Of a stretch of DNA of 64,000 nucleotides, positions 9,401-44,899 are shown one piece after another. The position numbers were made by a program, and so were the translations under genes. Origin of the DNA: Psammoneis japonica (taxonomy: Eukaryota); NCBI GenBank assembly GCA_008632985.1, contig QPGO01000143.1, forward strand, positions 1 through 64,000, read 5' to 3'. Under the pieces are notes generated by a model. That model did no database searches, was not told where the DNA came from, and was given only the letters and a program-made list of their open reading frames with translations. Each line of letters starts with the position of its first letter. Position 1 is the stretch's first letter.

Positions 9401-12400
9401 GAACAATGTCAATGTTGAGGGCAGAACGGGGAGCAAAGTGCCTGTTTTGCAAATGATTGAGAAGATGCACAGAAGAGAGATGGGCACATTGGCTGTGACA
9501 GCAATGTCTGCAGACATGCAAACCAGCGGCATCAAAGAATGCAGCAGGTGCTTGAGAAAAAGAGAAACGAGGGTGCTCCTGGCAAAGGTGGCTGTGTGCA
9601 GCAGCAGGAAGAGAGGAAGCATTTGCAGATGGAGGAGACCAGGAGCAAAAGGGACAGGCCAGCAGGGCACAGGTTTCAGTGGGTTCCACAATGTGATGGT
9701 GTTGGGGGGTGAGTCAAAGTCAGGGGCTGCAGTCCAGACAGCAGCTTTGCACAGGGGGCATCCAGTCAGAGAGGTGAGCTGGGCACCAACAAGTGCCAAC
9801 AAAGGCATTGAGGGCATCCAGGAGTTCCATCTTGTGCTGGGACTGCTGAGGAGTGACAGAGTTGTCAGACTCAGTCTGAGAGATTCATCAGGAATGTCAG
9901 CTGGCTGTGCGGGAGCGTCAGGAGAGGGATGGGGGCACTTGAAGAGAGGGGGCTCAGCAGTCAGAGAGCGGGTGTGCAGGCAAAGGCTCGGAGGAGGCCC
10001 ATTGGCAGGAAGTGGGTCTTGGGGTTCACGAAGCTGCCAGTCCTGAGCAAGCAGCTCAAGAGCATGGACAGCAGGAAAAGAAGTTGCATGAAGGGGCAGG
10101 CAGCTGAAGAGTGGCAGAGGCATGGGACCAGGAAACTGCATCATCATTGAGGGAAGCATCCAATGCAGAAGAGAGGAGATTGGAGGGAAAGCCAGGACAG
10201 TTGTGCAAGTTGGCATCCAAAAGGGCAATTGCACACAGAGATGGGAAGAAAAGAAGCTTGTGCTTGATTGGAAGGGCATTGCAAGCAGAGAAGATGGGAA
10301 TTAGAGACCAAAGGTTTGAAGCAGAGAGAAGGTGGTTGATGCCAGGCTGGGTCAGGGGAAGCTTGAGATGGTCAGAGACAACCACAACCATGTTGTTTTG
10401 ATGGGAGACAAGTTTGGAGAGAGAGCATTGCAGGTCGCAGAGAAGTTGGTGGGAGCTGGGAAGGGGATGACAGTGGTGGAAGTGCACAAAATAGAAAATG
10501 GAGCAGGCGGAGCATTGGGCGGGTTGGCAACATGAAGAGGGGGCACTCCAGATGGCATTGAAGGCTGCAGAGACATGGAAAACCTGGAGAGCATGGTGAC
10601 ATGTCTCTCAGCAGAGTTGGCAGGACACTGAGATGGCCAAATGCCAATGACATTGAGAAAGGAAGAGCAGTTTTGGAAGGACTGATGGATGGGGTTGGTG
10701 GTGGCACTGGAGATTCTGCCAACAAGAAAAGAGTGAAGGTGAGACAAGAGAAACTCACAGGTGCAGCAAGAAGTGCCACAAAGGGCAGGGGTTGGGCCAG
10801 CAAGAATGCCACGAGCCTTGTCAAAGGAGCCACAGGCAGGGATCATAAAGGTGCAGTGTTGAGCCCAAGGATTGTCCACAATGGGGGTCGGCAAAAAGTC
10901 AGGATGAAGGAAGTTGGAGAAGGAGCTGGTGGAGCAAAATGCAGCAAAGTGGGATGTGGGATGAAGGTGCCACTTTTGAAGGAGAAAGGAAAGCACTTGG
11001 CTGCAGAAGGAGAGAAAATCAAAAGTGGAACCTTCAGGCGTCACTGGATGGAAGGTGGCATGGAAGCAGGAGGCCCACTGGCTTTGATGAGGACAAGAGC
11101 ATTTCTTGGTCTGAGAGAGCATCACAGAGCCAAGCGCAAAGAGAAGTGGAGAGACACACTTGTCATGATGTTGCAGCATCTTGAGGACAATGTCACGAAT
11201 GACATCAGAAGCAAGAGCTGTGGCAGGCACATCAGGAGGATCAGTGGGACAAAGGACCTGAGCCAGAAGCTTGACGTTGGCCAAAGGGGAGGAAGCAGAA
11301 GCAGTCATGGCAGAAAGCAAAAGAGAAAAAGATGACAACTTGCAGAGAGTTGTTGTTGTGAGCGAATTGCCAAAAACAGCAAGGGGCCCACAGGAATCAA
11401 GTGGGGACACAACATGAAGGGTGGCAGGAAGGAAGCAAATGTGCAAAGCAATTCATGAAGCGGCATGGGAAGACAGGAAGAAAGCAGGTGGAGGCGTGAC
11501 ACAGGCAGCTGCATTTGGAGACACATGGGAAGGTGCACAGAAATGTGGGAAAGTGACCACAATGGAAGAAGGTGCAAAGGGAGTCATGGATGGAAAAGGG
11601 CAGGCAGCAGAAAGGGTGGGAGGAGAAACTGACACAAGCAAATGATTGGTTGAGGAAAGCCGTCAGGATGGGAGACAGGAAGAGCTGCAGAAAGGCAGAG
11701 AAGCAATCATGTCCAAAGACACGAAAGAAGTTGGGGATGGGAAAAGGGCAGTGGGAAGGACAGAAGGGGAGGCTGGCAAGAGCAACTGATTGGTTGAGGA
11801 AAGTGGATGGGGCAGAATGGATGGAAAGATTGCAATTGTGGAAACCGGGGGTCAGCGGCCAGCACAAAGGGCAGATGTGTTCCAGTCCCAGGTGATGCAC
11901 AAAACAACAATCAATTTTGAATGTAAATCATGTGTCTCTTGTGCATGGAGCATTTGCATGTAAAATGCTTGAGCAGATGTGCTTTTGCAGGTGTCTGGAG
12001 CATGCACATTTAATTGGTTTTTTTGTTGGCATGCAAGTTCTCATGGGATGTGTGACACAAACTCCCTCAGCAGACTCAGTGCTGATTGTGTGTCAGCACA
12101 TTGCACACAGAGATTTGTCTGCAGGTGGAAACAATGCCAGACAGCATTGCAGAAAAAGTGCTCATGTTGACATCAAAATGACAGCAACAATTTTGCCGAA
12201 AATCATCCGTTGTGTGGCAACTCATTTGTTGCAACAAAAAACATGGATTGCACGAAAACAATGGCATTGCAACACTGACACGAGTCTTGTCAGTGTTGCA
12301 AAACATTCAAATTTGAATGGGTCTGTGCTTTTGGTGGAGAAAGCTTGATCGCAAGTCAGAGACCACGCAAAAATTGTGCAAATGTTATTCTTGTGCATGA

Positions 12401-15198: not shown

Positions 15199-15852
15199 AT
15201 GCCCGAGATTCAAATGACAAGTTGGTCCCTTGATTTCTCCAAGGGTCTGGACGAGATTCTCAACGACGGCGGCATCGTCCTCATTGGCGATGATCATAAC
15301 GATGGGGCCGCCTTCGATCTCGCTACGAACCTCATTGTGAACGCTGAAGGCAATGAGCATAAATATCTGCTAGTAGAATTGTCTGGAGCTCGCGCTTCGA
15401 CCACTGATAACGCATTCACAGAATTGAATGAGTGGAAAACATCTCACGCTGGCGGATTCAATTACGAAAGGTTCGAAGCTATGTTGAAGCGCGCTAAGAG
15501 TAGCCAATGGTCCATCCGCGGGATCGACATCAAAGACCCCAGTACAGTCCAAGGAATCCAAAAAAAGCGTCAAGAAACAATCGCCTTCAATCTCTATCAG
15601 TACTATCGCTTATCCCAGGGCGCCATTGTGCCCTACGGTTCCGGTCATCTCAAAGGCGTGAGAGCTTCTAATTACTCCGGGCTTCATTCCTACTTGGTTT
15701 CCCACGACAACAGGGAAGCTGTACTCCAATACGATGCCGACCTGAGTGCCATCAACGAAAATTATACCAGGCGTGTCCGCGTTGTCGCCATTCCGAAATC
15801 GTGCATGAATGCACGCACGTGCGGGGTGAATCACGACGACCTCAATAAATAA
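15199..15852 (+). CDS. Hypothetical 217-aa protein, possibly TIKI/TraB/EreA/ChaN-superfamily-like, inside the 2.2 kb repeat
   Basis: Normal-composition ORF; IVLIGDDH and PYGSGHL resemble the superfamily's GExH and VGxxH motifs (family call tentative). Confidence 0.5.
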   Translation: MPEIQMTSWSLDFSKGLDEILNDGGIVLIGDDHNDGAAFDLATNLIVNAEGNEHKYLLVELSGARASTTDNAFTELNEWKTSHAGGFNYERFEAMLKRAKSSQWSIRGIDIKDPSTVQGIQKKRQETIAFNLYQYYRLSQGAIVPYGSGHLKGVRASNYSGLHSYLVSHDNREAVLQYDADLSAINENYTRRVRVVAIPKSCMNARTCGVNHDDLNK

Positions 15853-17450
15853 TAGTTATATGACATGCACCCAAGAGAATGAAAAGCGTAACATGAGAGT
15901 ATCATTTTTTAACCATTTATCGGCTTGTTCATCCAGGGAGCTCGTAAGCCTGAACGCATGATTCCCTTACATCGACTCTACTAGAGCAGTGATTAAAGGC
16001 CTGTTCCTTGCAAGCAAAACTGCAATTTCTCGAATCCAATTGTTAGCCACGAATCAACGAGCGCTCCTCAATCGTTGTTTCTTGTTTTCGTATTTGATCG
16101 TCATCAGGTGAAACTTGCGCTCTCCTTACACTTGTAGACTTTTTCGTGCTCTGAAAGTTCAATGAACAGTCGCATTCATGATGAGAAATCCATTCACACG
16201 GACATCTCTCGCATTTACCCTCCCGCACTCCGTTTTTCTTCTTCTTCTTCTTCTTCTTCTTCTTCTGTAATTGTCCTTTCGTTCCATTCCCCGTCAGCAC
16301 CCCTGTTGCCCTGCTTGATGCACGTCAGCATTGTCAAACCAGCAATTCCAAGATGCTCTCATCAGACTCGCACAAGACTTGTTCTGGGACTGCTCCCTGG
16401 ACCAAAAAGATGCATGACTGGAACACAGAACATGCAGTGAAAAGTGAGGGTTTTGTCATAATTTCTGTCTGGCACCCAGTTGCAGAAGTTGCAACTGTTG
16501 CTGTGTAGATTGCTTGGTGCTGCTCCAGCAGTGCCAGCCAGCTCTAGCCAGAGCCCACTTTTGCACAGTCACGCGGGGGGGGGCACAGCTGCTGCTCCTG
16601 TCTGCAAAAACAAATCACAAAAAAAACCTCTCCACCGCCACATGGGCCACAAAATGGGAGTTGTCTCAGTCAACTGTGCAGGAACTCATTTGCAGTTTTC
16701 AAATGTTGGGCCACTTTTTTCACAATGCCAAAAAAGCTTGATGTCAAAATGGCGGAGGCTCCTCAGCCCTGAGCCCCCCAAATGGCATGCACTGCCTGCG
16801 AGTTGCTCCGCCATCAGCATTTGTGGGTGGCCGGGGCACAAAACAGCAGGTTTCCAATGTGCTGCATGAAGATTGTCATTTGATGTTGTCATCCAACACA
16901 CACCTCCTGACACAGTGGAGAGCTGCAAGGACCCTCAGCAGGGAGGCGTGCTCGCTCTTTCTCATCTCAGACGGTGGGCACCTTCTGCTGGGACTGGGAC
17001 CCAACCTTCTTGGATGATTGCTGGGTCAGGCCTGCATTCTAGAATGTAAGACTGAGAGCCAATGAGGTGGATTGGATGGGGCTGCCGTTGGACAGAACAA
17101 CAGCCACTTCCAAGTTGCACGCAGCCACGAGGAGTGTGCTTTGAAAACAAGCAGGGGCATGTCTGGCTCCCCAAGCTGCTGCAAAAATGTTTTTTCAGTC
17201 TGTTCATCCTTCTGCATGTGGATTGTAACTTTATAGAATGAAGAAGCTGACATGCCATCAGCAACTGCATCAGTGATGTGACCCATTGTCATTGCAAAAA
17301 GAGGGCGCGCGAGGGCATTCGATGGTGCTGGCGCTAATCTGAAATCACCTCCTCCTCGTATGACATTGTGTACATTTCTACATAATGGTGTCCTTTGTCA
17401 CTAAGTAAAATTTTGCTATGACCGGAGCGACATTTTTGAAAGATTTCGAA
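15212..17450 (+). repeat. Copy B of the ~2.2 kb direct repeat; ends unmutated, centre (~16300-17290) TpA-depleted
   Basis: Alignment with 4272-6430. Confidence 0.93.
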
Positions 17451-18867: not shown

Positions 18868-19138
18868 ACTATCTATATTGATTCAGAGAGCTGTACGGCG
18901 CATGTGAATCTATCGCAAAGCCACTTTCTCGCAACAACGTGCACTGCTGTGATTGCTAATAGGTGGAGTAGGAAACGACCGGCAAAGAGTAGCAGCATCC
19001 CAAGCCAAAAAAATTGCGACATCAACCGATAACAAATTAATCTGTAATCCTCGTGGAAGCAAGCACGAAAACTATCCTTTTGGCTTCGACTGCCTCTTGA
19101 ATGTGTTCTGGACACTGATTAACATGTCAATTTGCTCT

Positions 19139-20020
19139 TTACCATCCTTTCCTTTCAATCGACTTCTCTATCGTCTTGAACCCATCGGGATCAATCGTAG
19201 TAACGGCAACCTCCACGGTCCCATCCTCCTTTATTGCCTTTTCTGTGGTCTTTTCCGTCATCTTCTTGGATCCAACTTTTTCGGAACTGTTAAGGGCATC
19301 ACTGGACAGCTGTTCCAGTTTCCGGCGCAGCGCCTTTACAGAAGCAGTGTCCCTGGGCTTGACCTCTAGACAGCTCCTGTGATTGTGTTCTTGGGGGTTG
19401 CCTCGCTTTTGCGGATTCCAAAACAATTGCCATTCTCCACCTGTCTTCTGGCCATGACAGCACCCTCCAGAGCAGTGCCTCCAAACAAGTCCTTGGCAAC
19501 GGCACAGCTGAGGTCTCTGCCGACTCCACGGTTGCCATTGCACACAGCAAGATCCAGTTCTCCTGTCTGATGGGACCTGCTGCGGCCAACACACTGCACC
19601 TCCCAACTTGATGACCTGCCATTCCTGCAAACGTCTCCAAGGTGGAATTGTCCATGAGGAGAATGAGAATGTTGGCCAGTTGAGTGCCTGCAACAAATCC
19701 TCCTCTCACCCCACCCATTCCCACATGGCAGAGGGATCAGACCCACTTGCATTGTCATTGCACTTCATGAGGACCCCTGTGGTCCCCATGTTGCCTGTGA
19801 AGATGAAACCCTCCCACCTTGACATTCTGGATGAGGACAATGCAACATCAGCTTTGGACATTTGCAAGAAGTGCAGAAGGAGAGAAATCAGCAATTTTGG
19901 TTGTGAGAAGCAAGCAAACTCATGGGTCACCAAGAGTTGCTGGGGGTCAAGCACCTGCATCAACACATGGTTGGTGTTGTCAATCATTCCTTGCATGTTG
20001 GCACCCGTTGCTCTTGTCAC
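19139..20020 (-). pseudogene. Inverted, degraded paralog of the Ysc84/SYLF gene at 36805-37725
   Basis: MQGMIDNTNHVL, MGMGGVRGGFVAGTQLANILILLMD and KTIEKSIERKG match the + copy. The intron is retained, there are frameshifts, and homology extends into the 3' flank (18920 ~ 37950). Confidence 0.88.
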
Positions 20021-21446
20021 TTGCTTGTGTCTTAAAATTGCAATGCCATCGCATCTTGCAGATGGAACTCTGAGGCAAGTTGCACTGTGAATGGTGTGAA
20101 AAGTGAAAACCAAGTCAGAACATGGGTGAGAGAGCTCCCAACATGGGAGGTCCTGCATCCTGCTGCACAAGAGCAAAGACAGTGTGTTTTGTTTGGATTT
20201 GAGGTTTGAGGACAAGCAGGAGGTTGCACCAGTGCCACAGTTGTTCTGGCCAAGGGTTTCAAATTGGGGGGGGGGGGCACTTGCCAAGCATCTTGTCAAT
20301 GACTTCTTCATGCTGTTGAATCAGCCAGGTCTCTGCACTGTCCAAACCATCTTGGTGCATGGCATCTGGTGAGGATGGAGATGTTTGGGGTTCAACTGAG
20401 TCCACACACATGGTTTTTTTTCATGCGGGGCACCCCTTCATGCAATTGATTGTCCCAGACTTTTGCTTCTTGTGAGGAAGAGCTGCACAGGTTGCAACAA
20501 GCTTGCACAATGCATTTGTGCAACATCATGTTTTCATGCAGCCCATTTGTCATTGCAGTTGCTGCCACTGCCAAAAACAAAGCAATTTTGTGATGGGTGG
20601 GGACAAGGGCATGCCAAATCATGAAGTCACTCAGTGTTGCAGTCATTTAAAAGCAGAAAAAGTTGACCAGATGTCAAGGAGTGCAAAAAACAATTTTTCT
20701 AAAGTCTGCAATGACCAAATTACAAAAACACTGGGGTGAGTGGGAGGTCAAAGATTCCAGTGCAGTGGCAACAAAGCTGAGAGCCTTGGCAAAGAAGTGT
20801 CATCACAAAAAATGCAAGGTTCCTAAATTTTTCACTGAACGTCCTGCTTCTTGTTGACAAGTGGTGTTTGACAAGTGGCTGGACATTGTCAAGAAAATTT
20901 TGGCACCTGAGACTCAACATTGCTGGCAAAAAGTTGCTGCAGCTGTGCAGCCAACTGGCACATGCAGTGCTGTTGGTGGAGAAAATGAAAGACATGCTTG
21001 CAGAGTGATGTTGAAAGAGAAGGATGAATGCTGGCAGTGAGTGGTTTCTGTGGAAGGCAGGGTTCTGCAGAGTGAGTGCTGCCAGCTGCTGCAGCAACAC
21101 TTCTTGAAGATGAAGCCAACAACAAAATGCCAGCCTTGCAGCTTTAGAATTGCCAGGGAAGTTGAACAGCATGGCAAGATGCTGTTGAGCTCACAGCAAA
21201 CTTCTCAAGAGTGCTCTTTTCAACAAAAGATTTTTGCCTTGCATTTGACCCCCAACATTGCCAGAAGAGCTGACACACAGGGTTGGTGCAAAGTTGGTTG
21301 CTGAGAGCAGGAAAAAGAGCCTTGTTTGTGTCCATTGTTCTGCAAAACTCTTTGCACACAAGAAAGAGGCCACAGAGCCAGAGTGAAAGAAGAGGAGCAG
21401 AGGTTCACTGTGCAGAAATCACAACTCAAAATGTGCCTTGGAGCCT

Positions 21447-21750
21447 TGTCGCGGAACATGACTCAGGCGGGACTCAGATGATTGGGTCCCGTTCACGAAT
21501 GAAGAGTCACGTGGTTTCTGGTCACAAGAATCACGGCGAACCGGGATGTTTGCGATCCAGGGACGATGGTCCCCCGTGATGTTTGACGTGACGTTTGGAC
21601 GTGTTACTTTGAGTTTGACAGGACTGTAATTCAGAAGAAGTAGAAAAGTAGATTATAATTTAGCGAGAGTGAGAAAAGTGAAGACTATTAATTTTAGTTT
21701 TGTGTGCTACTGACAAGGTGTTAGTAGTATCGGCATCTGGTTGTCCAACA
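21447..21750 (+). repeat. Copia 5' LTR
   Basis: tgtcgcggaac...ttgtccaaca, matches 26921-27224. Confidence 0.97.
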
Positions 21751-21809
21751 CGATATATATCGACAGTTTGTGGCAACACTACATTCGAGAGTAGTAAGTG
21801 AGAGAAGCG

Positions 21810-24800
21810 ATGAGCAAGGAAGAACAGACCTACGAGACTTCTTTGTCGTGGAGCGGCAAGAGAGAAGACTTCGAGAATTTTTTGGTGAAATTCGAGGCAT
21901 TCGAGAGCGACCACGGTTGTGACGAAGCAACCGATGTGGATCTAGGAGATAAGCTTCTCACCAAGGCGGAATACGTGAATGGAAAGAAGAAAGTAACGCA
22001 AGCTAATGGTGCAGAGACCGAAGAAGACCTCACAAAGGAGGATAAGAGGTTGTACAAGCTGAACGCGAAATCATTTTCGAAGATCATCCGTGCGTTGCCT
22101 GAAAACTTGATCAAGGCCTGCAAGAACCAAGGTGGACCCAAGAAGTCCGTTTATTTGATCAAGGAGTACCTCAAGAAACACTACTCGGAGCAGAATGTGG
22201 TAGATGATTACCAAAACCTCTACAAGAAGAGGTTGGAGCTAGAACCTGGAGAGTTCGAGATAGCGCTGTTCTATTTCAACGAGTTGGAGGATATTAACTC
22301 CAAGTTGGGAAAGATTGATGAAAAGTATCGCTTAGATGAGCTTCAGTTGAAGACTGATATCTATTCAAAAGTCCCGGATCAAGGTAACTGGTCCTCTTTC
22401 AAGTCCGAGTATCGCAAGGACGGCGCGATGGAGAACATTGCCTACAGTGCGTTCAAGCAGCACTATGAACGGGAGTGGAAAGCTCATGGTCCACCAGGAG
22501 GATCTACTACATCTATAGATCGATCTTCTGGAGAGGATAAGACCCTAACTATGAAGGTACAGGGTAGCAAGTTTTTCCCGGGTAATTGTGGGAAGTGTGG
22601 CAAGAAAGGTCACAAGTCAAAATTTTGTCCTGACAAGAAGAACGCCAAGACGAAGAAATTCGATGGCGATTGCTTTTATTGCGGCAAGCATGGACATAGA
22701 GCGAGCGACTGCTTCAAGAAGAAGAAGGATGAAAAGGAGAAAGACGAAGAAACGAACGAGGTTACACTCGGAGTGTTCGATTCCGTCGACTTGGTTGAGG
22801 AGGGTAAGGACCCTATTCCAGACTCCTTCTTCGATACCTTCGATACTAAGCCTGCAGTTCGAGACGATGAGTTCGAGAGAGAGCTTAAGAGGTGGGATAC
22901 TCGGTCTGGACTGGGTTACGGCTACGATAGTAGCGGCGAACGCGCGCTGTCATGGTACGAATGGAGCGAGATGGCGGACGATGAGGACGAAGAAGACGAT
23001 GACGGCATGAGCATGCCGGAGCTAGAAGGTCCTTTTGTTTCTGATAAGGTCGAGGATGAAAGTATCCCGCCCTTGGAACCGCGGTATGATTCCGACAGCG
23101 ATTCGGATGATGACGAGTCATTAGAGCTGATCGGCTCTCAACGCAAGTGCTCCAACTGTGACGGGCCTGGACATGTCTATCGAGGCTATCGCACAACGAA
23201 GAAAGTTCAAGACGAGGACAAGGGAGACGAGGAAGACAGTATCCCGCCCTTAGTATCTCGTGGCGGTTATGATAGCGACTCGAGCGATGACGAGTCGGTT
23301 GAATTCGAGGTTGTTTGCTCGTATTGCGGACAGCCTGGACACGAATTCTGCACTCCTTTCCAAGAGTTTTGGAATAACCCGGATGAAGAGAGCGATGATG
23401 ACAGTATTCCGACTCTAGAGAGTGGTATGGACTCGGATAGTGATTCAGAGTCCGAGTTTGATTACGATTCGGACGACGACTATGACGAAACACTGATGTC
23501 CGGTGCGCAGTATGAACCAGAACGTGGCGGTGTAAGGCTACTATTGGACTCTGGCTCGACAGCACATACAAAGAGGTCTGCTGAAGGGATGCGGAACCTC
23601 AGGGAAGTGAACAAAGTCATGAAGGACGCACACGACGGGAGTTCGGTAGCGAAGCTCCAAGGAGATTTTCCATTTACGCGTCAGAATGGGGACGGTACAG
23701 TAGTTATTACTGAGATGTACGTCCAGCCAAATTTTTCACATAACATTGTGAGTCTGACGAAGCTATTTGAGAAAAATTGCAAGCTGAGTCCGACGACTGA
23801 TCCCAAACGAGCCATTGTTCTCGAGTGCCCTGATGGCACGGAATTAATTTTCGAAAAATCAGCGAAAGATGGGCTGTTTTATATGGAAGTTGACTCGCTG
23901 ACGGATGTGTCCGAAATGACCGCAGACGTTTCCGATGGACAGAAATCTGGACAAAAAGAGTCGGACAAGAAAGTCCATGTTAACCGCGCACACATTTTGC
24001 TGAACCACATGGGGGAACGCGCGATGAAAATGGCGGCAGCAGATCTCGGTTGGAAATTGACCGGTGTGCCGAAGACTTGCGAGTTCTGTGTCAAGGCAAA
24101 GGCTACAGCAAAGCCAACCGTGAAGGCTAGCGATAAGAAAGCGACCAAGCCTGGTCAGCGGCTCTACCTAGACACGTCAGGACCATGCAAAGCGACGCGC
24201 GGCAAGAATCGACATCATGTGATGATGGTCGATCAACTTACAGATCGACTTTGGTCGATGTTCCAAGCGAAGAAAAATGGTTTTACGGACGATGTCAAAG
24301 CTTTATTGACTAAGCTGAAGGGTCAGGGGCACCCAGTCGAGTTCTTACGGATCGACAACGCTCCGGAATGGGGTGCACTCAAGCCAATTTGTGATGAGCA
24401 TGGGATCACGATCGAGCACACCTCCCCTGATGCTCCGCAGTTCAACGCGGCAGTCAAGAGAGCGTTCCCAACAGTGCGTAATGTGGCACACGCGGTGCTG
24501 AAAGCATCCGATTTCGACGACGCAGAGCAAAGTCGGCAATGGGCGAATGCGCTGCAGGACTGCACCATCGTTCGTAACTTGGTCCCACGTGGGGACTGGA
24601 GCAATGCTTGTGAACCATTTGGAGAAAAGCCACCCGTAAAAGCCGAAGACCTGGTAGAGTTTGGCGCAAAGGGGTGGATGGCCAAGAGAAACAAGATCAT
24701 GGCCAAGTTTCAAGATCGTGCCGAGGAGGTTCGTCGCGCAGGATACGCTGAGAATCACTCGAGCGATGCGTACATTGTTCAAAAGTTGTCAAATCGTCGT

Positions 24801-27053
24801 TGTGTGTTGACACGCGACGTGGCATGGGAGTCTAAAAGACGATGTGATCACCCAGACCCCGAGACATTGGTCGAAAAGCAAACTCCGCGAGCAACTTGGG
24901 CGGACGACGCAAGACCGTCAACAGTGGTTGAAGAGATGTCACGCCCCTCTCAGTCATCCGCAGACGACCCCGACTTTCATGATTCTCATTCACAAATTGA
25001 GGAGGGAGAAGAGAGTGCAACAGACGGCGAGGAATCAACGGATGGCGAAGAAAGTGACTCCGAGATGGGTGCGCCACCTGACGGACCAGGACAGACGGAC
25101 AAAGAATCAGCTGTGAACAGTCGATTGGAACGCGAGTTGAGCAAGCTGAGGACTTCTTATGACCCAGCTGGTCTCCCAAGCAACGACGAGGACGAGGTAG
25201 AAGCGGTGAATGTGGTCGCAGGACATGTTGATCCGAAGAATGATCACGAAGCGATGACAGGCGACGAAGCTGACGAGTGGTGGAAGGGTCTGGTCACAGA
25301 ATGCGATGGATTTTTCGACTTGAGAACTTGGATGCTGGTCAAGGAAGCCGAATTGAAAGGTAAAAAGACATCCAAGCCGCTGTCAACGAAGAACGTCTAC
25401 AAAAAGAAATTACACGCGACAACAAAAGAGGTGCGGCATCGCGTGCGCAACTGCACTCGGGGGTTCGACATGACACCCGGAGTTCATTTCGATGAATCTT
25501 TTGCACCTGCTCCGACGGATCATACTGTGAGACTCACATTGGCGACATCATCATGGATGCTGGAACAGTTGGAAGTCGATGATGTCGACGAAGCCGAGAA
25601 GGAGTGGATTGTCGGGCATTTGTTCGATGTTGTGCAGGCATTTCTGAACTCAGAGATGACTGGACCACCTGCACATGTGCATCTTCCCCCTATGTGGAAG
25701 GAGTGTTGCGAATATAAAGGTTGGGAATACAACGAGAACGATCTTATTTTGCTCGGAAAGGCGCAACATGGGCAAGTCGATGCCGCGAAGCGCTGGATTG
25801 ATGTGTTTGTCGGAATCATGACTGAAAAGGGTGGCGTCGAGCTTAAACGAAGCAAGACTGACCCTTGTGTGTTGTACCGTCATGATGACAAGGGGCAATT
25901 GGAGATTATCATTTTGATTTATGTGGACGATGGTTTCATATGTGGGAGGCCGGAAGTCGTTAAGGAAGCCAAGGACTATTTGGCGAAGAGAGTTAAGATA
26001 CTGGACATTGGACGAATCGACACTCATTTAGGAATTGATTATGAGTTGAAGAAAGACGAACACGGTTGGTACTTCGAGTGCAGTATGCGCAAGTACGTGG
26101 AAAAGATGGTTGCGGAGTACGAACAACGCTTCAACAAGACACTTAAGGATTACGAGACACCTGGGGAGCCAGGGAAGATATTGATGAAGGCGGACGAAGA
26201 CCATGAGCCGGTCGAGCAAAACGGATATCGAGCCTTCGTCGGAAAGATCCTATATGCGATGTTGAAGGTCTTACCTGATTGCGCGAATGCGATTAGAGCG
26301 CTGACAATGCATTTGACGAATCCAACTAAGGATCACTGGCACGCGCTGGACAGACTTATGGGACATCTGAAATTTCACTATCAGCCGTTGAAGTTGAGGT
26401 CACCTTTGGAATTAAGGAGCATAGGGATATTCGACGCTGAGTGGGGGACGGACAAGAATGACAGAAAGAGCATTTCGAGTGACATTTCCACACTGGGCGG
26501 TACGTCGTTAACTAATTGGCAATCGAAGAAGCAGACCTCTGTGGCGCTGAGCAGTTGTGAAAGTGAGACCATAGCGGGCACGGCGTGCGCGCAGAGCATA
26601 CAATTCCAGAATCATTTATTGGAAGAGCTGGTAGGTACGGACATGTTGAAGATGCCGAGTTATGCGTACGGAGACAACGCCGCATCACTGTTTCTGGCTG
26701 TTAACAACCAAGTGGGACAGCGGACGAAACACATTCACATTCGTGATAGACATTTGGGCGAGTTGGTTCAACGTGGAGAAATTGAACCACGCCATGTCAG
26801 TGCGGAGAAGAACCCGGCAGATGTCAACACCAAGAACGCGAAGATCGAAACGCACAAGAGACTAGCTCAGAACCTGCATGACGGATTCGTGATGGTTGAA
26901 CCGGAACCAATCAAGGAGGGTGTCGCGGAACATGACTCAGGCGGGACTCAGATGATTGGGCCCCGTTCACGAATGAAGAGTCGCGTGGTTTCTGGTCACA
27001 AGAATCACGGCGAACCGGGATGTTTGCGATCCAGGGACGATGGTCCCCCGTGA
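21810..27053 (+). CDS. Copia Gag-Pol polyprotein (zinc knuckles, protease, integrase, RT, RNase H)
   Basis: Two CCHC knuckles (CGKCGKKGHKSKFC, CFYCGKHGHRASDC); LLDSGSTAH; H..LNH...CEFC, LYLDTSGP, LRIDNAPE; IYVDDG; WQSKKQTSVALSSCESE, RTKHI. Order PR-INT-RT-RH. Confidence 0.95.
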   Translation: MSKEEQTYETSLSWSGKREDFENFLVKFEAFESDHGCDEATDVDLGDKLLTKAEYVNGKKKVTQANGAETEEDLTKEDKRLYKLNAKSFSKIIRALPENLIKACKNQGGPKKSVYLIKEYLKKHYSEQNVVDDYQNLYKKRLELEPGEFEIALFYFNELEDINSKLGKIDEKYRLDELQLKTDIYSKVPDQGNWSSFKSEYRKDGAMENIAYSAFKQHYEREWKAHGPPGGSTTSIDRSSGEDKTLTMKVQGSKFFPGNCGKCGKKGHKSKFCPDKKNAKTKKFDGDCFYCGKHGHRASDCFKKKKDEKEKDEETNEVTLGVFDSVDLVEEGKDPIPDSFFDTFDTKPAVRDDEFERELKRWDTRSGLGYGYDSSGERALSWYEWSEMADDEDEEDDDGMSMPELEGPFVSDKVEDESIPPLEPRYDSDSDSDDDESLELIGSQRKCSNCDGPGHVYRGYRTTKKVQDEDKGDEEDSIPPLVSRGGYDSDSSDDESVEFEVVCSYCGQPGHEFCTPFQEFWNNPDEESDDDSIPTLESGMDSDSDSESEFDYDSDDDYDETLMSGAQYEPERGGVRLLLDSGSTAHTKRSAEGMRNLREVNKVMKDAHDGSSVAKLQGDFPFTRQNGDGTVVITEMYVQPNFSHNIVSLTKLFEKNCKLSPTTDPKRAIVLECPDGTELIFEKSAKDGLFYMEVDSLTDVSEMTADVSDGQKSGQKESDKKVHVNRAHILLNHMGERAMKMAAADLGWKLTGVPKTCEFCVKAKATAKPTVKASDKKATKPGQRLYLDTSGPCKATRGKNRHHVMMVDQLTDRLWSMFQAKKNGFTDDVKALLTKLKGQGHPVEFLRIDNAPEWGALKPICDEHGITIEHTSPDAPQFNAAVKRAFPTVRNVAHAVLKASDFDDAEQSRQWANALQDCTIVRNLVPRGDWSNACEPFGEKPPVKAEDLVEFGAKGWMAKRNKIMAKFQDRAEEVRRAGYAENHSSDAYIVQKLSNRRCVLTRDVAWESKRRCDHPDPETLVEKQTPRATWADDARPSTVVEEMSRPSQSSADDPDFHDSHSQIEEGEESATDGEESTDGEESDSEMGAPPDGPGQTDKESAVNSRLERELSKLRTSYDPAGLPSNDEDEVEAVNVVAGHVDPKNDHEAMTGDEADEWWKGLVTECDGFFDLRTWMLVKEAELKGKKTSKPLSTKNVYKKKLHATTKEVRHRVRNCTRGFDMTPGVHFDESFAPAPTDHTVRLTLATSSWMLEQLEVDDVDEAEKEWIVGHLFDVVQAFLNSEMTGPPAHVHLPPMWKECCEYKGWEYNENDLILLGKAQHGQVDAAKRWIDVFVGIMTEKGGVELKRSKTDPCVLYRHDDKGQLEIIILIYVDDGFICGRPEVVKEAKDYLAKRVKILDIGRIDTHLGIDYELKKDEHGWYFECSMRKYVEKMVAEYEQRFNKTLKDYETPGEPGKILMKADEDHEPVEQNGYRAFVGKILYAMLKVLPDCANAIRALTMHLTNPTKDHWHALDRLMGHLKFHYQPLKLRSPLELRSIGIFDAEWGTDKNDRKSISSDISTLGGTSLTNWQSKKQTSVALSSCESETIAGTACAQSIQFQNHLLEELVGTDMLKMPSYAYGDNAASLFLAVNNQVGQRTKHIHIRDRHLGELVQRGEIEPRHVSAEKNPADVNTKNAKIETHKRLAQNLHDGFVMVEPEPIKEGVAEHDSGGTQMIGPRSRMKSRVVSGHKNHGEPGCLRSRDDGPP

Positions 27054-27224
27054 TGTTTGACGTGACGTTTGGACGTGTTGCTTTGAGTTTGACAGGACTG
27101 CAATTCAGAAGAAGTGGAAAAGCAGATTGTGATTTAGCGAGAGTGAGAAAAGTGAAGACTGTCAATTTTAGTTTTGTGTGCCACTGACAAGGTGTCAGCA
27201 GTGTCGGCATCTGGTTGTCCAACA
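26921..27224 (+). repeat. Copia 3' LTR (TpA-mutated)
   Basis: 14 differences from the 5' LTR by manual alignment, 12 of them TA>TG/CA. Confidence 0.97.
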
Positions 27225-27787
27225 GAGCCTGTTGAAATGACAGCCACTGACAATGAAGTGAAGGTGTTGCAAGTGTTGGCAGCAGGAACGTGCAAACTGT
27301 GGCTCAAGAGCTCCTTTCTACGAGACGAGGGTGCAGCAACACAAACAGATCCAGAAGCTGAAAGGCGGGTGGTGAAGAAAAAGACAGGCAACTCCAAAAG
27401 AAAGCAAAATGCCTTGCAGTTGGTTGCAGCATGCAACTGTGCCAAAGAGAGAGCTCATGGAGCCAGGGTGCAGGTCCCACCACCCGCTGCTCTTCAAGAT
27501 CCTCAAGAGACCCCTGCCTCTCCTCGGAAACAAGGTGCTCTGGCTGCTGCACAAAAAGCAGATGTTCGTTGGCTGTCATCGTCACGGGCAAATTTGGAAA
27601 GGCAGTCCACATCATGTTTCTGCGCAGACCTGCCGGCAATTTCTCGCGAACACCGGTGCCAAATTTCATGCACATGAATTTGCTGGTGTCTGAGCATTTT
27701 CTTCATTGTTGCGAACGCTGGGGAGTGATGCGTTGCCCAACTCCAAATTGCGCCATGATTGACACGGCCAAAAAGTGAATCTCCACC

Positions 27788-29836
<2,049 letters not shown>

Positions 29837-33199: not shown

Positions 33200-34731
33200 A
33201 TGGCAACGTATTGGTATCTTCCTCGCTTGTTGGACAATAACGATGGTGAAAATGAAGACATAGCCCCCTATTGGGTACCACTAGTAGTTCTGGGCGTTTG
33301 TTTGGTTATCATGTGCATCTGGTGTTGTTATTGCTTGCCAAAGTACGCGGCACCCACCATCATTCCTTCTCAACAAGAAGGAGCAGCGGGAGGAATAATG
33401 GCCCAAGGCGAAAGTCTTTCCTCATTACCGCCACCAAGGAGGACGAGTGAGCAGATAATGTTGGAGTCTGCGACAGCCGTTGGAAATATTTGGAGGCCAG
33501 TGACATCGAAGTTCACTCTTTTTTTCGGAGTCAATGTATTGATGCTCACTGGAATGCAGTTGAACTTTGAGGCTACCGCTATTGTACTGTTGATTTTCGT
33601 ATCTTCTTGCTTCTTATATGGAAGATTCACTGACTTGATCTTGATGATTCCTTTGAAAAAAGAAAACATAGCCAAAGCAGAGGGTACCGATCATCACGTC
33701 AGGGCAGATACGCAACCACCAAATCCCTTTCGACTTTCTACGGACCAAATATTTGGTCCGCAGTACGTAACTATAGGGGGTGCTCCGCCTACTCTTCAAA
33801 CTGATAACATCTTCAATGATTTTGGATCAGATCTTTCGACTTCACTGCTCCTTGCGGCGACGCAAATAACGCTTCTTGTCATATATGTTTGGGGTGTGTA
33901 CGACCAGGGTAGGCCTGACTTCAGTGATAAACAGGTGTATGCCTTCTATTGGCTGGGAATCTTCGTCCAGATATCGTATGTTATTGGCAACGATCTCACG
34001 GCAAAGATAGTCGACAACAGGGCATTCTGGATTAATGTTCTTGCAGTATCACAGTCACGAGGACATAGCACCTACACATACACATGTGAGAGAGAGAGGT
34101 CTCTTGGAAGGAGAAGTTTCTTTCATCGTTTAGAGACGGTTCGGCAGTGACGGCACTATTATATCCCAGTGCTGAACCGCAGTCGGAGGTTGAACTCAAA
34201 CAGATCAGGTCGCAGCTGCGCCTTCGATATCTTCTGGATCGGCTAGTCAACGAAGTTGGGCTCTTTATTCTAATGCTCAGCTTGCCTGTTCAGCTGTCGG
34301 CAAGTGATGGACCTGTTGATTTTGTCCTCAACGCGGTTGCTGCTTTCTTCGTGATTGAGCTGGACGATAGAGATTCTGTGGAATACAATCTTAAGGTTCC
34401 CCAGAAAGATGAACGCAAAGAAGAAAGAAGCATTGTTCTTCCTGCAATCAAGGACAGGAGCAGAGACCCACCAGGTGAATGTGCTTCGGCTTTTTACGTT
34501 GTCAAGATTGACAAGGACGACGTTCCCGTTGAGCACAAATGTCAAGATGATAATTCTGCACCTCCCGTGATCGACAAACCATCCGAAGCAAATGAAGAAG
34601 AGTTTGCAGAAGCAGAGAAGTCAGAAGAAGAGAAACGTGAAGAGGAGAATGAAGAAGAGGAGAACGCAGAACAGTGGCAATCTTGCAGCAGTGACATGTC
34701 TTTCATGCGGGGCGCCCCTTCATGCAATTGA
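33200..34731 (+). CDS. Multi-pass membrane protein of unknown function, in two frames (intron or frameshift near 34100-34150)
   Basis: Consecutive ORFs 33200-34150 and 34147-34731 with TM segments, DFVLNAVAAFFVIELDD and an acidic tail. Confidence 0.6.
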
Positions 34732-36320
34732 TTGTCCCAGACTTTGCTTCTTGTGAGGAAGAGCTACACAGGTTGCAACAACCTTGTAAAATGCATTTTT
34801 AACATCACGTTTTCGTGTAGCCTATTTATCGTTGCAGTCGCTGCCACTGCAGAGGACGAAGCAATTTTGTGACTGGCGGGGACAAGGGCACGTCGAATGA
34901 TGAAATCACTCAGCGTTGCGGTCGTTGAAGCAGAAATAAAAGCTGACCAGATGCCGAGGAGTGCAAAAGACAAATTTTCTGCATGACCAAACAACAGAAA
35001 CACCTGGGTCTCTTAGAACTGGGATTTTCACCCCCCCCCCNCCCCCCCCCCCAAAGAAATGATGTCTGATCTGAGTGCTCATTGCAGCCTCCTGAGTTTC
35101 TCACATTTTGCTCATTGGCATCATCTTTGTCATCCAAGGCATCAGGTGAAAGCAATTTTGAGGTCCATGTTGATGGTGCCTGATGGGTCTTGTTGGCTGC
35201 TGGATGTGTGTCATGGACTGGCTTGCTTTTTGGCAGCAGAGTGTGTGGAACATTTTGTTTGGTGGAAGAACAACACATGATTGTCAATGCCATCTTTCCA
35301 GACATGCACAACATCTCAAATTCCGAGCGACTGCTTGCAAAAAGTTGCCAAAGCCACACAGTTGACTGGCAGCATGTGCGGCGCTGTTGTTGGCAATGAA
35401 AGACATGCTTGCAGCAATGTAAAAAAGAAGGATGAAGACATGTGGGCAGAGGCTGGTGTCAGTGGAAGGCAGGTTTCTGCACTCCAGAGTGAGTGCCCAC
35501 CAGCTGTGCGTGGCCAGAGACTTGGCTGGAGACAGAGCCAGTGGTGCCAACCTTGCTTTTTTGGGGGGTGCCAGGGCTCTTGAGCAGTGTCACAAGGTGC
35601 TGCTGTTGAGCTCACAGCAAACTTTCCAAGAGCAGTCCTTCAAAAAAGAAAGACCCTTGCTTGCCATCATCAACACGAACGAGCCTGTCGATGAAGTGGC
35701 AGCATGGTCACCCAAAAAGGAGCTCCAACATGTGGCCCAATGATGTTGCCAGAAGAGCTGGCATGCATGGCTGATGCAAAGTTGGTTGCCATGAACAAAG
35801 GCAAAAGATCCTTGTTTGTGTCCACCATTCCACAAGAAGACTCTTTGCACAAAGAGCGCTCCTGGCTCCACCGCCAAGAGCCACAGAGTGAAAGTGGAGA
35901 GAGGAGCAGAAGTGCGCCACACACAAATCAAAGCTCAAATGTGCCTTGGAGCCTGCTGTGAGGTGGAAGCCACTGATGATGAAACAAAGGTGTCACAAAT
36001 GTTGGAAGTGGGTGCATGCACGCTGCGGCTCAAGAGAGCTGCTCTGCGAAAAGAGGGCACAGCACAACAAAGAGAGAGACCCAGAAGTTGAAAGAGGCGG
36101 CCCCGGGTGGGTGCAGAAAAAGACGAGCAATTCCAAGAAAGTGAAATGCTTTGCAGTTGGTTGCAGCACACACCTGTGCCAAAGAGACCTCATGGAGCCA
36201 GGGCGCAGGCGCCCCACCTCAAGATCCTTTGGACGACCTCCTCAGAAACAAGAAGGTGCTGTTGTTGCTCTGGCTGCACTGGCTCAGAAGCCAACAAGAA
36301 GGTGCTCTGGCTGCTGGAAA
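34704..36320 (+). repeat. Uninterrupted partner of the duplicated segment at 20420-21446 plus 27231-27560, TpA-depleted
   Basis: Patchy colinear similarity; includes a fragment of the SNF2 gene 3' end at ~34941-35160. Confidence 0.8.
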
Positions 36321-36804: not shown

Positions 36805-37725
36805 ATGGTTAAGGTTACCGACCTACAAGGAATGATCAACAACGCCAACCATGTGTTGACACAGGCGCTTGACCCAACAACTGCCGGCGTCCCGTGAGTT
36901 TTATGCGTATCTTTTGTTCGTTTTTTTTTCTGAAACTTGCGGCAGCTGATTCTCATATATCCAAAATAATAATTGCTGAAATTTCTCTCCTTCTGCTCGT
37001 GACTTGCAAATGTTCGCGCATAGCCGAGGTCTCTTTAAAGCATGCAAAGGCATTGTCCTTATTCAGAACGTCAAGGCGGGTTTCCTCGTCACAGGTAACG
37101 TCGGCACGGGTGTCCTCATGAAACGCAACGATGACGGAACGTGGTCGAATCCCTCCGCTATGGGCATGGGTGGGATGGGAGGAGGATTCGTCGCGGGTGC
37201 TCAAGTGGCTGATATTCTCATTCTCCTCATGGACGATTCCACCTTGGATACGTTTTCGGGAACGGCAGAGATCAAGTTTGGAGGCGCCGTGTCGGCCACG
37301 GCGGGTCCCGTCGGTCGGGAACTGGATCTGGCGGTACACGGCGGTGACGGTGGAGTCGGCGGAGCCCTCAGTTACACCTTTTCCAAGGGCTTGTTTGGAG
37401 GCGCGGCTCTGGAGGGTGCCGTCATGGCGGTAGACCGGCGGAGAATGGCGATTATTATGGACTCCGCAAGAGCGAGGCAACTCCCAAGAACATAATCACA
37501 GGAGCGGTCGAGGTCAAGCCCAGGGACCCGGCTTCTATAAAGTCGCTGCACCAGAAACTGGAGCAGCTATCCAATAATGCTGTCGCCAATTCAAAAGTTG
37601 GATCCGTGACGGAAAAGACCACAGAAAAGGTAACAAAGGATGATGGGACCGTGGAGGTTACCGTTACTACGATTCTTCCCGATGGGTCCAAGACGATAGA
37701 GAAGTCGATTGAAAGGAAAGGGTAG
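36805..37725 (+). CDS. Ysc84/SYLF lipid/actin-binding domain protein; intron 36894-37023; apparent 1-nt frameshift near 37429
   Basis: KGIVLIQNVKAGFLVTGNVGTGV, WSNPSA, AGPVGR, YTFSKGLFGGAALEG; the paralog shows the frame continuing to ...IERKG*. Confidence 0.85.
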
Positions 37726-38365
37726 TAAAGAGCAACGTGAAATGGTAATCTGTGTTCAGAACCCAATCAAGTGGCAGTCGAAGTCGAAAGGATAGTTTTC
37801 GTGCACGAGGATTACAGAGCAATTCATTATTTGCGAGTAAGATAGGTTGATGTCGTTTTTTGTTTGGGCTACTGCTACTTTTTCCCGGCGGTTTCCTATT
37901 CTACCTATTACATATCATAGCAGTGCTGGTTATTTCGAGAAAGTGGCTTTGCGGTAGATGCATGTTTACCGTAGGATACCGACAAAGAAATAGTGGAAGT
38001 AGAGAAAGTTGACCAGATGCCAAGACGTACAGCAGATAGATTTTCTGAAATCCGTTCGGTAATGATAAATCAAGAAGAACAATTGAGTCCCTATGAAGTT
38101 TGTTCCCCTGTTTGATTTTCAATCACAAAAAGAAACCATGTCTGATGCAAATGCTCATTGTAGTCGCCTGATCGCACATAAGATGCGGATCCAGCTCAGA
38201 AGACTCTGTGGCTGCTGCCTTGGCATTTTCGTCTCCAGCTGCGGTGTTTCACAGTAACACCCCCTTATTGAAAATGTGGTTGTTGAAGCTTCTATCCTTA
38301 CCCCAGTCCCCCGTCGTAGTGTTTGAGGCTCTACAACTACACTGCTGCAAATATAATCAACCACA

Positions 38366-42800: not shown

Positions 42801-44635
42801 TGCTCACAAAACCAACAAACAGCCAGCAATGACCCACATCATGGGGCCACAAGCCATGCGCCTTTCTGTCCCTGTCAAAGCACTGCAGGTGATGTCAAGC
42901 AAAAAATGAGTTGCAGTTGTGTTGTTGTTGCTGTGGCTGTTGCCATTGTTTTTTTTGTGCAACAGGCTCTCTCTGCTTGCATTCTTCTTTTTGCTGCAGC
43001 ATGCTGCCATTGCTTGCAAGAGCCAATTTGGAGCTTGTTTGGGTCAAGCCAACCAAATTGGAGGATGAAGTGCAAGACAAGTGTGAGGAGGCATGGAACA
43101 AGGCCGCAAGAGGGCCAACAATGCAGGTGTGTGAGTGTCTGCTGCTGCATCAAGAACCTGCTGCACTTGCAGCTGTTGTGTTTGGAGAACAAAGCTTGCA
43201 CACATGGTTTTGTTCTCATTTGCAAAAGTTGCACCACCCAATGGTTCTTGGGAAAAGTCTTGGTGGCCAGTTGTTGTTGTCTCCATGCCAAGCCCTTTTT
43301 GGGCATTTTTTGTCTTTTGGCTCTCAGCTCAAGCAGCTGTTGTTGTGGGTTTGTTTTGAATCAGTCACAAGCTAACTCAGCAGAATTTGACAAAACTGCA
43401 CTGCATCCCATGGTGGCAAACATGCTGGAAATTCCCACCATGGAGTTGGGCAGCACCACGCAGTTGGGATTGCACAAGACCCCTCTCAAGAAAAAATTGC
43501 AAAAGGCCTCAACTGCACTCTGGTTGCAAGGAAACAGATGCCACCATCATTGTTGCAAAGTCAGCTTTGCACACATCAATCAGGTTCATGCAGCAAGCAG
43601 AGCTCTTGTTTTGTGGACAAGACAAAGCTGGAGAGCACATGCAGGTGGTGGTTGGACCACCCATGCCATGTGGGAGCTGGCACACCATCCCAAGTTTCAG
43701 CCCTGCCCCTTGTTGCCAAGCACAGCCCAGCTCCAGTGGTGCCACTCATTGCAAGCAATGAAGACAGAGTGAGGCACTCCAGAATGGGGCCAACAACAAT
43801 GCAGAGGGGGGGCTTTTGTGGTGCTCCAGTTGAGCGCCACACCTGTGCATCATGCAGGCCCACCCATGCCAATGTTTGATTGAGCCAACACAGGAATCAT
43901 TCTAAAATGTTGCAACAGTTGGGCTCACAACTGACACTCTGCACAATGAAAACTGCAAAAGTGTGCATGATGTCATGCCAGAGGGTGGTTGGAGGCTGGG
44001 GCTTTGCTTTGCATGGTGAAGAGCAGAGTCATCAGTCAGACAGCACTTCAATTGATTTCCTAAGAAGTTGATGTCCAAACAATGCAGCCAGCCAGTCAGA
44101 TGGAGGATTGATCTTTTTGGTGCAGGCCCACACAGTTTTTCTGTGCAATGACTCCAAAGCATCATGCAATGACTCCTTGAGTTTTTTCATGAAGAGAAAC
44201 GGGCACGATGCAGTTGGTCATGCAGCCATGTGAACAATGGCACACAAGTGTGCCAACTTGCATGTGTGTCAGGGTTTGGCTCATCTCTGGGGAGGGTGCT
44301 GCGTGCAGTGTCTTGGCATGTTGAGTTCACAACCAATCTCCACAGGCAGAGTCTGGGCCAAGAAGTGGCGTCATTTGGTGCTTGTGTGGAGACCACTGGG
44401 GATGCCTGGAACTGATGTGAAAAGATGGGACAAAAGTCCCTCTCAGGCAACGATGGGTTGCCCTTGCTGTTGCAAAGCTCATTCTTGCATTGACGCAGCA
44501 CCTTTCTTCCCAACGCATCATGGTTTTTTTGCCACTCATCAGCTGGCTGCACAGCAATCATGTGCAGCACTGCTTTGGCTTCCTTGCCAAGCAGCCCCCA
44601 TTGTGTGATGTCATGAAAGAAGTGAAATGACGGTG

Positions 44636-44899
44636 NNNNNNNNNNNNNNNNNNNNNNNNNNNNNNNNNNNNNNNNNNNNNNNNNNNNNNNNNNNNNNNNN
44701 NNNNNNNNNNNNNNNNNNNNNNNNNNNNNNNNNNNNNNNNNNNNNNNNNNNNNNNNNNNNNNNNNNNNNNNNNNNNNNNNNNNNNNNNNNNNNNNNNNNN
44801 NNNNNNNNNNNNNNNNNNNNNNNNNNNNNNNNNNNNNNNNNNNNNNNNNNNNNNNNNNNNNNNNNNNNNNNNNNNNNNNNNNNNNNNNNNNNNNNNNNN
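44636..44899. other. Assembly gap (N run)
   Basis: Run of n. Confidence 0.99.

Follow-up and report, generated by a model that had tools for sequence, protein, structure and literature searches.

The window analysed in this work, a 64,000-nt stretch of the diatom Psammoneis japonica (contig QPGO01000143.1, positions 1 to 64,000), carries a complete Ty1/copia retrotransposon at 21447-27224 on the + strand. Two parts of this element have exchanged most of their TA dinucleotides for TG or CA, one inside the gag-pol open reading frame (ORF) and the other at the 3' end, from where it continues into the neighbouring DNA. The parts of the element are listed below; LTR stands for long terminal repeat, TSD for target-site duplication, RT for reverse transcriptase and o/e for the ratio of observed to expected dinucleotides.

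21441-21446, + strand: left copy of the TSD, GAGCCT, read directly; the same 6 bp stand at 27225-27230, after the 3' LTR
21447-21750, + strand: 5' LTR with TG...CA ends, 304 nt, 14 TA, unmutated
21798-27053, + strand: gag-pol ORF, 1751 codons, open, first ATG at 21810, end inside the 3' LTR
23768-25770: tract A, TA-poor, covering integrase, linker and RT N-terminus; CpG o/e 1.12; end placed at 25680 by segmentation
24456, + strand: Glu887Lys at the integrase DD35E glutamate, a CpG to CpA change where family contigs read G
25771-26702: TA-rich island, RT core (YVDD intact) and most of RNase H, TA fraction 0.24
26705-27224: tract B within the element, end of pol and 3' LTR, 4 TA left
26921-27224, + strand: 3' LTR with TG...CA ends, 304 nt, 2 TA

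The membership in the Ty1/copia group follows from the paired LTRs with TG...CA ends, the TSD, and a gag-pol that encodes, in this order, a zinc knuckle, a protease with its DSG motif, an integrase, an RVT_2 reverse transcriptase and RNase H. The two LTRs are 95% identical, and their first 158 nt are TA-free in both. When the ORF was compared with Pfam, RVT_2 (7e-22) and zf-CCHC scored above the cut-offs, and Pol_BBD (26.3 bits) and SH3_retrovirus (19.5 bits) remained under the 27-bit cut-off. Alignment with canonical Copia polyproteins showed that the DSG motif, two integrase Asp, YVDD and the acidic residues of RNase H are in place. The element is an ordinary member of its class, sharing LTRs, TSD and the order gag, protease, integrase, RT and RNase H with the diatom CoDi-type elements, as far as these are set out in Maumus et al. 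2009 (PMC2806351). It differs from them in that its integrase gave no match to Pfam rve. This absence was considered as a sign of damage and rejected, because the four closest relatives (41-55% identical) also lack the match, and it is thus a trait of the lineage. Some other details of the element can be mentioned here. The sequence following the 5' LTR (21751-21765, CGATATATATCG...) does not look like the usual Copia primer-binding site, and a purine-rich tract (AAGGAGGG) lies just upstream of the 3' LTR. The C-terminal half of gag is unusually rich in Asp, Ser and Glu, and gag contains a 69-nt direct repeat (23051-23119 and 23228-23296, 74% identical) that encodes an acidic 'ED(E/D)SIPPL...DSDS' module.

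A first-pass annotation, made from the sequence alone, had proposed a kilobase-scale mutated patch at 24100-25800, in an otherwise open Copia ORF. The TA content along 21447-27224 was found to be uneven, as this proposal implied: gag-protease (21747-23900) has 95 TA against 245 TG+CA, 24100-25800 has 28 against 260, RT core/RNase H (25801-26650) has 37 against 119, and the 3' end (26651-27220) has 7 against 97. The odds ratio of 24100-25800 with respect to the two TA-rich parts was 0.30 (Fisher, p = 4.8e-9). In addition, a change-point search over the 976 TA, TG and CA sites of the element divided it, at penalty 7, into five segments with breaks at 21602/21605, 23764/23768, 25680/25691 and 26702/26705. 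The corresponding TA fractions were 0.30 (21605-23764), 0.084 (23768-25680), 0.24 (25691-26702) and 0.043 (26705-27216). None of 100 label shuffles was split at this penalty, and six of 100 were split at penalty 5.5. The segmentation bears out patches of kilobase size. The tracts are not confined to the element, since the one at the 3' end runs for about 2.4 kb into the flank.

Tract A retains 27 TA; at the TA share of the neighbouring TA-rich segment it should have, by our estimate, about 90. Counted per 200 nt from 23768, the survivors are 3, 5, 6, 1, 4, 2, 1, 2, 3 and 0, that is, the conversion is incomplete and graded. CpG is normal across the segments of the element, both tracts included (o/e 1.05-1.29), and GC increases from 0.47-0.48 to 0.50-0.52 in the tracts. 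The proteins follow the same pattern: Tyr makes up 4.1% of gag-protease and 4.4% of RT core/RNase H, which had been described as keeping their Tyr and do so, compared with 0.94% (6/639) in tract A and 0/116 in the 3' tract. TA-poor tracts in the Copia ORF are therefore confirmed.

The direction of the change, from TA to TG or CA, could be established by three independent lines: the LTR pair, the contigs of the family and the relatives. The LTRs of one insertion start identical, because both are copied from one template. Over 300 aligned nt the present pair shows 14 differences, all of them transitions and none a transversion. In 12 of the 14 the 5' LTR has TA and the 3' LTR has TG (6) or CA (6); the remaining two are one CpA/CpG and one T/C difference. 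Seen from the 3' LTR, A:T to G:C accounts for 13 of the 14. Since 12 of 14 TA sites were changed in the 3' LTR, against two differences at all the other LTR positions, the excess at TA sites can be roughly estimated at two to three orders of magnitude.

The second line comes from contigs assigned to the family, obtained from runs X1-X3 of one sample (none came from X3) and aligned to the element at a likeness of at least 80%; they represent a multi-copy family and not this locus. One of them, of 1582 nt, spans gag with only 3 differences, which indicates that the family is young and multi-copy. The comparison was made on the 40 best-supported of about 950 differing places. At 31 of these 40 the window has TG (16) or CA (15) where the family has TA, and 27 of the 31 lie at 24066-25767, which is the span of the private TA-derived changes of tract A. 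More generally, in 32 of the 40 rows the window has G or C and the family A or T. The proposed change of TA to TG/CA was thus seen both between the LTRs and against the family.

For the third line we took the 26 alignment columns with Tyr in at least three of the four relatives. Within 24100-25800 there are 12 such columns, at which this copy has His or Cys in 7, Tyr in 4 and Phe in 1. Outside both tracts there are 13, with 11 Tyr, no His or Cys and 2 other residues; ten of the kept Tyr are in the TA-rich island and one is at gag codon 695. The last column (codon 1694, in the 3' tract) has His here. The chance that all 7 His/Cys columns fall in the tract is C(12,7)/C(25,7) = 0.0016. Relatives and family contigs have Tyr at the changed positions, so the residues of this copy are not those of the family. 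As for the six motifs that had been offered as examples of Tyr loss, GPCK, RHHV and KAQHG are confirmed by the family contigs, and VRHRVR and AHVHLP have the support of the more distant relatives only. IEHTSP had to be withdrawn, given that the family already has His and the change is a synonymous CAT to CAC.

An asymmetry of dinucleotides alone gives no direction, and one could suppose that the TA-poor state is ancestral and that gag, RT core and 5' LTR gained TA by C-to-T changes at CpA/TpG, like those of RIP (repeat-induced point mutation). This idea has practically no probability: Tyr is found at the disputed columns both in the relatives (41-55% identity) and in canonical Copia proteins, the family contigs read TA, and changes of the RIP type would have put stops in gag and the RT core, where the frame is open.

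Regarding the mode of action, the first-pass annotation had suggested a mechanism either processive or patch-based. If a single-strand deaminase had moved along the DNA in one processive pass, the changes should form strand-coordinated runs. The order of the outcomes (13 TG and 12 CA) gave 15 runs against 13.5 +/- 2.4 expected, i.e. random alternation, which argues against a single-strand processive pass. This check of strand coordination speaks against the processive option and leaves the patches; the pattern fits numerous hits that fell independently, on either strand, within a targeted patch.

The hits also depend on the neighbouring letters. Of the mutated sites, 22/31 were of the alternating form RTAY (ATAT, ATAC/GTAT, GTAC), compared with 4/31 of the TA surviving in the tracts (Fisher, p = 6e-6). 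When the whole window is divided into 500-nt bins, the 135 TA surviving in the depleted ones include no ATAT, 3 ATAC, 39 CTAA/TTAG and 23 TTAA, and their contexts differ from those of the 1046 TA found in the normal ones (chi-square, p = 2e-24). When the LTR pair and two pairs of paralogues were considered together, the numbers of sites lost and kept were 10/0 for RTAY, 51/14 for mixed contexts and 5/6 for YTAR, with 9 sites changed otherwise. Since the preferred context is palindromic and the two strands are used equally, double-stranded DNA (dsDNA) would seem to be what is recognised.

The region around the element contains the following features.

19371-21446: left flank, an older tract in which TA and CpG are both lost; the element inserted into this tract
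27225-29609: flank part of tract B, TA-free and mostly CpG-retaining, with the DUF6824 ORF, ending at the (GT)n run
27779-28861: DUF6824 ORF, E 4.7e-13, adjoining the 3' LTR
29090-29571: (GT)n microsatellite, 482 nt, uninterrupted, bounding the TA-free tract on the right; position 29572, just after it, is a single N

When 17-31 kb was segmented more coarsely, 26751-29609 came out as one segment, with 9 TA against 680 TG+CA; CpG o/e is 0.75-1.04 from 27447 to 28846. The ORF with the DUF6824 domain is nearly TA-free with CpG kept, and its 361 residues include 2 Tyr, 18 His and 16 Cys. It looks like a copy of a host-type gene that was caught in the same patch as the 3' end of the element. A search for homologues of this flank gene matched 2 of 5888 candidates; three Tyr of one protein, P0034, are His or Cys here, too few to count. 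Because the LTRs were once identical and the tract crosses the junction, the 3' patch must have been made in the chromosome, after the insertion. The intact TSD is in keeping with an action in place.

This result bears on an explanation in which the transcript was edited before reverse transcription. ADAR-type A-to-I editing prefers U before the edited A and clusters on dsRNA derived from repeats (as quoted in bioRxiv 10.64898/2026.01.13.699255), and a copy edited in this way would have integrated with its changes already made. If the genomic RNA were edited, A to G would be found in the sense strand only, and here there are 15 CA and 16 TG in the element and 6 of each in the LTR. Furthermore, the LTRs, although copied from one template, do not agree at 12 TA sites, and the tract extends into flank DNA that does not belong to the element. 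We therefore regard editing of the transcript as highly improbable.

On the left side, the segment 19371-21602 has 6 TA against 492 TG+CA and a CpG o/e of 0.20. The insertion site has an empty-site paralogue at 34701-36218, which corresponds to 20419-21446 plus 27242-27484 in pieces that are 70-83% identical. The element sits in one copy of this duplicated segment, and both copies are TA-poor. The assembly has a gap of 264 N at 44636-44899 and single N at 29572 and 35041, the latter two in or beside TA-free tracts.

The process is window-wide and not a feature of the element alone. Out of 64 one-kb bins, 23 have at most 6 TA (TA o/e 0.00-0.09); where a bin holds recognisable genes, the number is 22-63. 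The genes for an FNT transporter, SNF2, BBE and a sulfotransferase have 23-44 TA per kb bin and 1.9-3.8% Tyr. For the neighbouring formate/nitrite (FNT) transporter the named eukaryotic matches are diatoms, namely Amphora (56%), Epithemia (47%) and Nitzschia (45%), and the best others reach 63-68% identity.

The older tracts of the window have lost CpG besides TA. Two paralogues that are about 78% identical (BLAST), 4273-6141 and 15213-17104, have 5 TA and 22 CG in one copy and 49 TA and 82 CG in the other. They are separated by 37 dinucleotide differences of the TA type and 59 of the CG type. At 27 more places one has TG and the other CA, which is what hits that occurred independently should give. 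The paralogues also differ by transversions and indels. A second pair, inverted and with a similar identity (18905-19843 against 37050-37962, about 78%, BLAST), has one copy that lost TA and CG to TG and CA and another in which most of them are retained. The element is thus at an early stage, in which a fast loss of TA comes first and a slower decay of CpG later.

Depleted DNA has also lost most of its TAA and TAG: with both strands counted, the two together amount to 3.3 per kb, compared with 18.9 in normal DNA. In depleted 500-nt bins (about 30 kb) TAA is found at 1.98 and TAG at 1.35 per kb, against 9.73 and 9.13 in normal ones. Long ORFs with no Pfam match were observed in several frames of the depleted bins, e.g. 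9203-10300 (-), 10352-11452 (-) and 42612-43772 (+). The near-loss of TAA and TAG explains them, and makes such DNA a trap for gene prediction.

Taken together, these data make it probable, in our opinion, that a young Ty1/copia copy was hit in place, after its integration, by a DNA-level TpA mutator acting on kilobase-sized patches of chromatin. Several observations weigh against this interpretation. The TA-rich island between the tracts (25691-26702) was resolved at the lower penalty only, and at penalties 9 and 13.8 the sole surviving break was 23764/23768. The 5' LTR is untouched though it abuts a fully TA-free flank, which means that simple spreading from neighbouring DNA cannot explain everything. 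For the 27 tract-A rows, the letter of the window is absent from all family contigs in 13 and carried by only a minority of the depth in 14; since rare variants are dropped from contigs, the letters of the window are neither confirmed nor refuted by them. Finally, private changes that do not involve TA are somewhat denser in tract A, where 6 of the 40 rows lie within about 2 kb, than outside it, where 3 are spread over about 3.8 kb, as one would likewise expect if the tract had been inherited from an older copy.

The last two points lead to an explanation in which the mutator is real and tract A was not made here, but was acquired as a mosaic, by template switching in reverse transcription or by gene conversion, with an unmutated copy and an older hypermutated one as the two partners. 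It is generally known that LTR retroelements recombine often, and both the denser changes outside TA and the 14 rows with a shared letter would agree with it. The 13 rows with no sharing contig do not, and the depth of sharing goes from 26 to 161 from row to row, with no single donor visible. Moreover, conversion in tract A is graded and dependent on context, as it would be for hits still accumulating, and the 3' tract would remain unexplained, given that LTRs start identical and that the tract enters the flank. We consider a mosaic origin of tract A unlikely.

It should also be asked whether the letters could be an artefact of assembly or base calling, for instance if a modified TpA in silent chromatin were misread as TG or CA. 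That the tract-A letters of the window are unseen, or in the minority, among the family contigs would speak for it. In a library of 1.84 billion proteins, the 150 best of 39,329 matches have a median Tyr content of 3.5%. One of these relatives, P0176 (287 aa, 54% identical, from an environmental contig of 962 nt), is entirely without Tyr: His or Cys stands at 12 of the 13 columns with conserved Tyr, and it reads HVDD where relatives have YVDD or YIDD. In addition, L002 (12-938), one of six related metagenome loci, shows a TA o/e of 0.24 with a CpG o/e of 0.65, and its open frame of 309 aa contains 17 His, 12 Cys and no Tyr; in the remaining five loci the TA o/e is 0.49-0.66. The presence of the same signature in two unrelated environmental records, from other data sets, argues against an artefact of this assembly, and the process that erases TA therefore acts outside it too. 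Other results agree with this. The family contigs carry CA or TG at 26084 and 26380, where this copy has TA, and the old tracts show real decay in the form of CpG loss and of transversions and indels between paralogues. According to the main text of a preprint on the alga Bigelowiella natans, the same mutations arose de novo in Illumina-sequenced lines (bioRxiv 10.64898/2026.01.13.699255). An artefact is thus very unlikely.

With respect to the protein, the 27 TA-derived changes of tract A comprise 21 missense and 6 synonymous changes and no stop. Tyr was replaced by His or Cys at codons 797, 806, 898, 1016, 1303 and 1324 in tract A and, as a seventh case, at codon 1694 in the 3' tract; the family contigs read Tyr at all seven sites. 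The Tyr lost at codon 1324 belongs to the YG motif of RT, shared by all the relatives and by all the canonical Copia sequences compared. As had been argued beforehand, a change of TA to TG or CA cannot close a frame: by the codon table it yields no TAA, TAG or new TGA and destroys existing TAA and TAG, and the 1751 codons accordingly remain open. It had further been suggested that the element was inactivated by such missense changes. Conserved Tyr were indeed hit, but the clearest single inactivating change, judged from the alignment, would be Glu887Lys, which is of the CpG and not of the TA type. At column 887, Glu is present in 4/4 close relatives and in two of three canonical Copia integrases, the third being off by one residue. 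On these grounds the element is probably inactive.

We propose the following course of events. A mutator would turn TpA into TpG or CpA (A:T to G:C) within kilobase-sized patches of chromatin. In this element one patch would extend from the integrase to the RT N-terminus, with about 70% of its sites converted, and another would cover the 3' end and run into the neighbouring DNA, with about 85-98% converted. Hits would occur independently on either strand and accumulate over time, at RTAY (alternating purine-pyrimidine) first and at YTAR last. The TG and CA products would no longer be targets, and for this reason CG would not rise. Codons for Tyr, Ile, Leu, Met, Asn, Thr and Val would be rewritten in this way while the frame stays open throughout. 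A slower decay of CpG would follow, presumably through cytosine methylation, and would so far account for two changes in the patch, one of them the integrase Glu to Lys. The chemistry may be an adenine deamination, and the targeting may follow silent or repeat chromatin. The signature and its direction, the patches, the timing of the 3' patch after insertion, the hierarchy of contexts and the lack of strand coordination are observed in the sequences themselves.

More tentatively, and at somewhat less than even chances in our view, this could be a diatom genome defence: a patch-targeted conversion of A:T to G:C in dsDNA, by adenine deamination or otherwise, at TpA with RTAY preferred, that would quickly disable new retrotransposons before CpG decay and without stops. 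Under the same proposal the system would be the one of B. natans, ancient in SAR (stramenopiles, alveolates and Rhizaria), and its enzyme a natural sequence-specific editor of adenine in dsDNA. We know of no natural adenine deaminase that acts on dsDNA, and a full-text literature search on that phrase returned none, only the cytosine deaminase DddA. If real, such an enzyme would be of interest to base editing. The half-mutated young element offers a time-resolved snapshot of the process, with patches of 2-3 kb, both strands used, RTAY taken over YTAR, saturation at TG/CA, and TA lost before CpG. There is also a hazard for annotation, because dead transposons and pseudogenes keep or even gain long open frames that gene finders would call intact.

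Among the known systems, RIP of Neurospora and other ascomycetes changes C:G to T:A, turns CpA/TpG into TpA, lowers GC and creates stops. The process in the window resembles RIP (on which see e.g. PMC2621366 and PMC7882544) in being a dinucleotide-specific transition hypermutation of transposons and duplicated DNA, made in place and in tracts, with neighbouring genes intact; the paralogous segments of the window also differ from one another in this manner. It is opposite to it in direction: here TpA is destroyed, GC is raised and no stop is possible, so that the C:G to T:A changes raising TpA that define RIP are not what we found. The mutated DNA of the window is repeated (a multi-copy Copia element, paralogues), yet most of the element is untouched and the borders of the tracts do not fall on the borders of homology.

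ADAR hyperediting and APOBEC3 editing also disable retroelements by clustered transitions of the deaminase type, and ADAR resembles the present case also in preferring U/T on the 5' side. These two kinds of editing take place before integration and on a single strand, of RNA or of cDNA, whereas the changes described here fall equally on the two strands, distinguish the LTRs from each other and extend into the flank. Moreover, APOBEC gives G to A and not A to G.

The features of TpA hypermutation, namely A:T to G:C transitions at TpA, giving TpG or CpA, in delimited regions, were all found here. For diatoms, our full-text literature searches found no description of TpA loss or of A-to-G hypermutation, and by term search the subject is absent from the searched text of a 2025 diatom transposon preprint and of Maumus et al. 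2009 (PMC2806351). The sole published account is a 2026 preprint on a rhizarian alga: Mettrop et al. describe in its main text a TpA-restricted hypermutation of integrated DNA of giant viruses (NCLDV, nucleocytoplasmic large DNA viruses) and virophages in B. natans (bioRxiv 10.64898/2026.01.13.699255). The mutation-accumulation lines reported there yielded 302 nuclear point mutations, of which 231 lay in two regions of integrated viral DNA; those in the viral regions were nearly all A to G or T to C, and these were all at TpA. The rate in the regions, measured de novo, was about 1000 times the background, and an ADAT2-like deaminase was proposed. The TpA-depleted coding sequences of B. natans were enriched, by the same account, for reverse-transcriptase and DDE-endonuclease domains. 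The RTAY-over-YTAR preference, a test of strand randomness, diatoms, LTR elements and CpG are not mentioned in the main text of that preprint.

As far as that text goes, the two cases are alike in several respects. The changes are almost only A:T to G:C transitions, at TpA, with TpG or CpA depending on the strand; they are restricted to delimited foreign or mobile DNA and spare neighbouring genes, with the qualification that here one tract also covers the host-like DUF6824 ORF; and the hits build up gradually and not in one pass. They differ in the host, which is a chlorarachniophyte (Rhizaria) in one case and a diatom (stramenopile) in the other, and in the target, integrated viruses there and an LTR retrotransposon plus duplicated host-like DNA here. 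The patches described in this work measure 2-3 kb, with borders inside one element, against regions of 25-186 kb in B. natans. The depletion is deeper here (TA o/e 0.00-0.09 in 23 bins against 0.45 in the NCLDV region), and, unlike in that account, it is followed by CpG decay. What is new, for a kind of hypermutation described once, in 2026, is the host lineage and the class of target. With this second and distant lineage, the enzyme can be searched for by comparison, among genes common to both hosts and absent from relatives that have no TA-free tracts.

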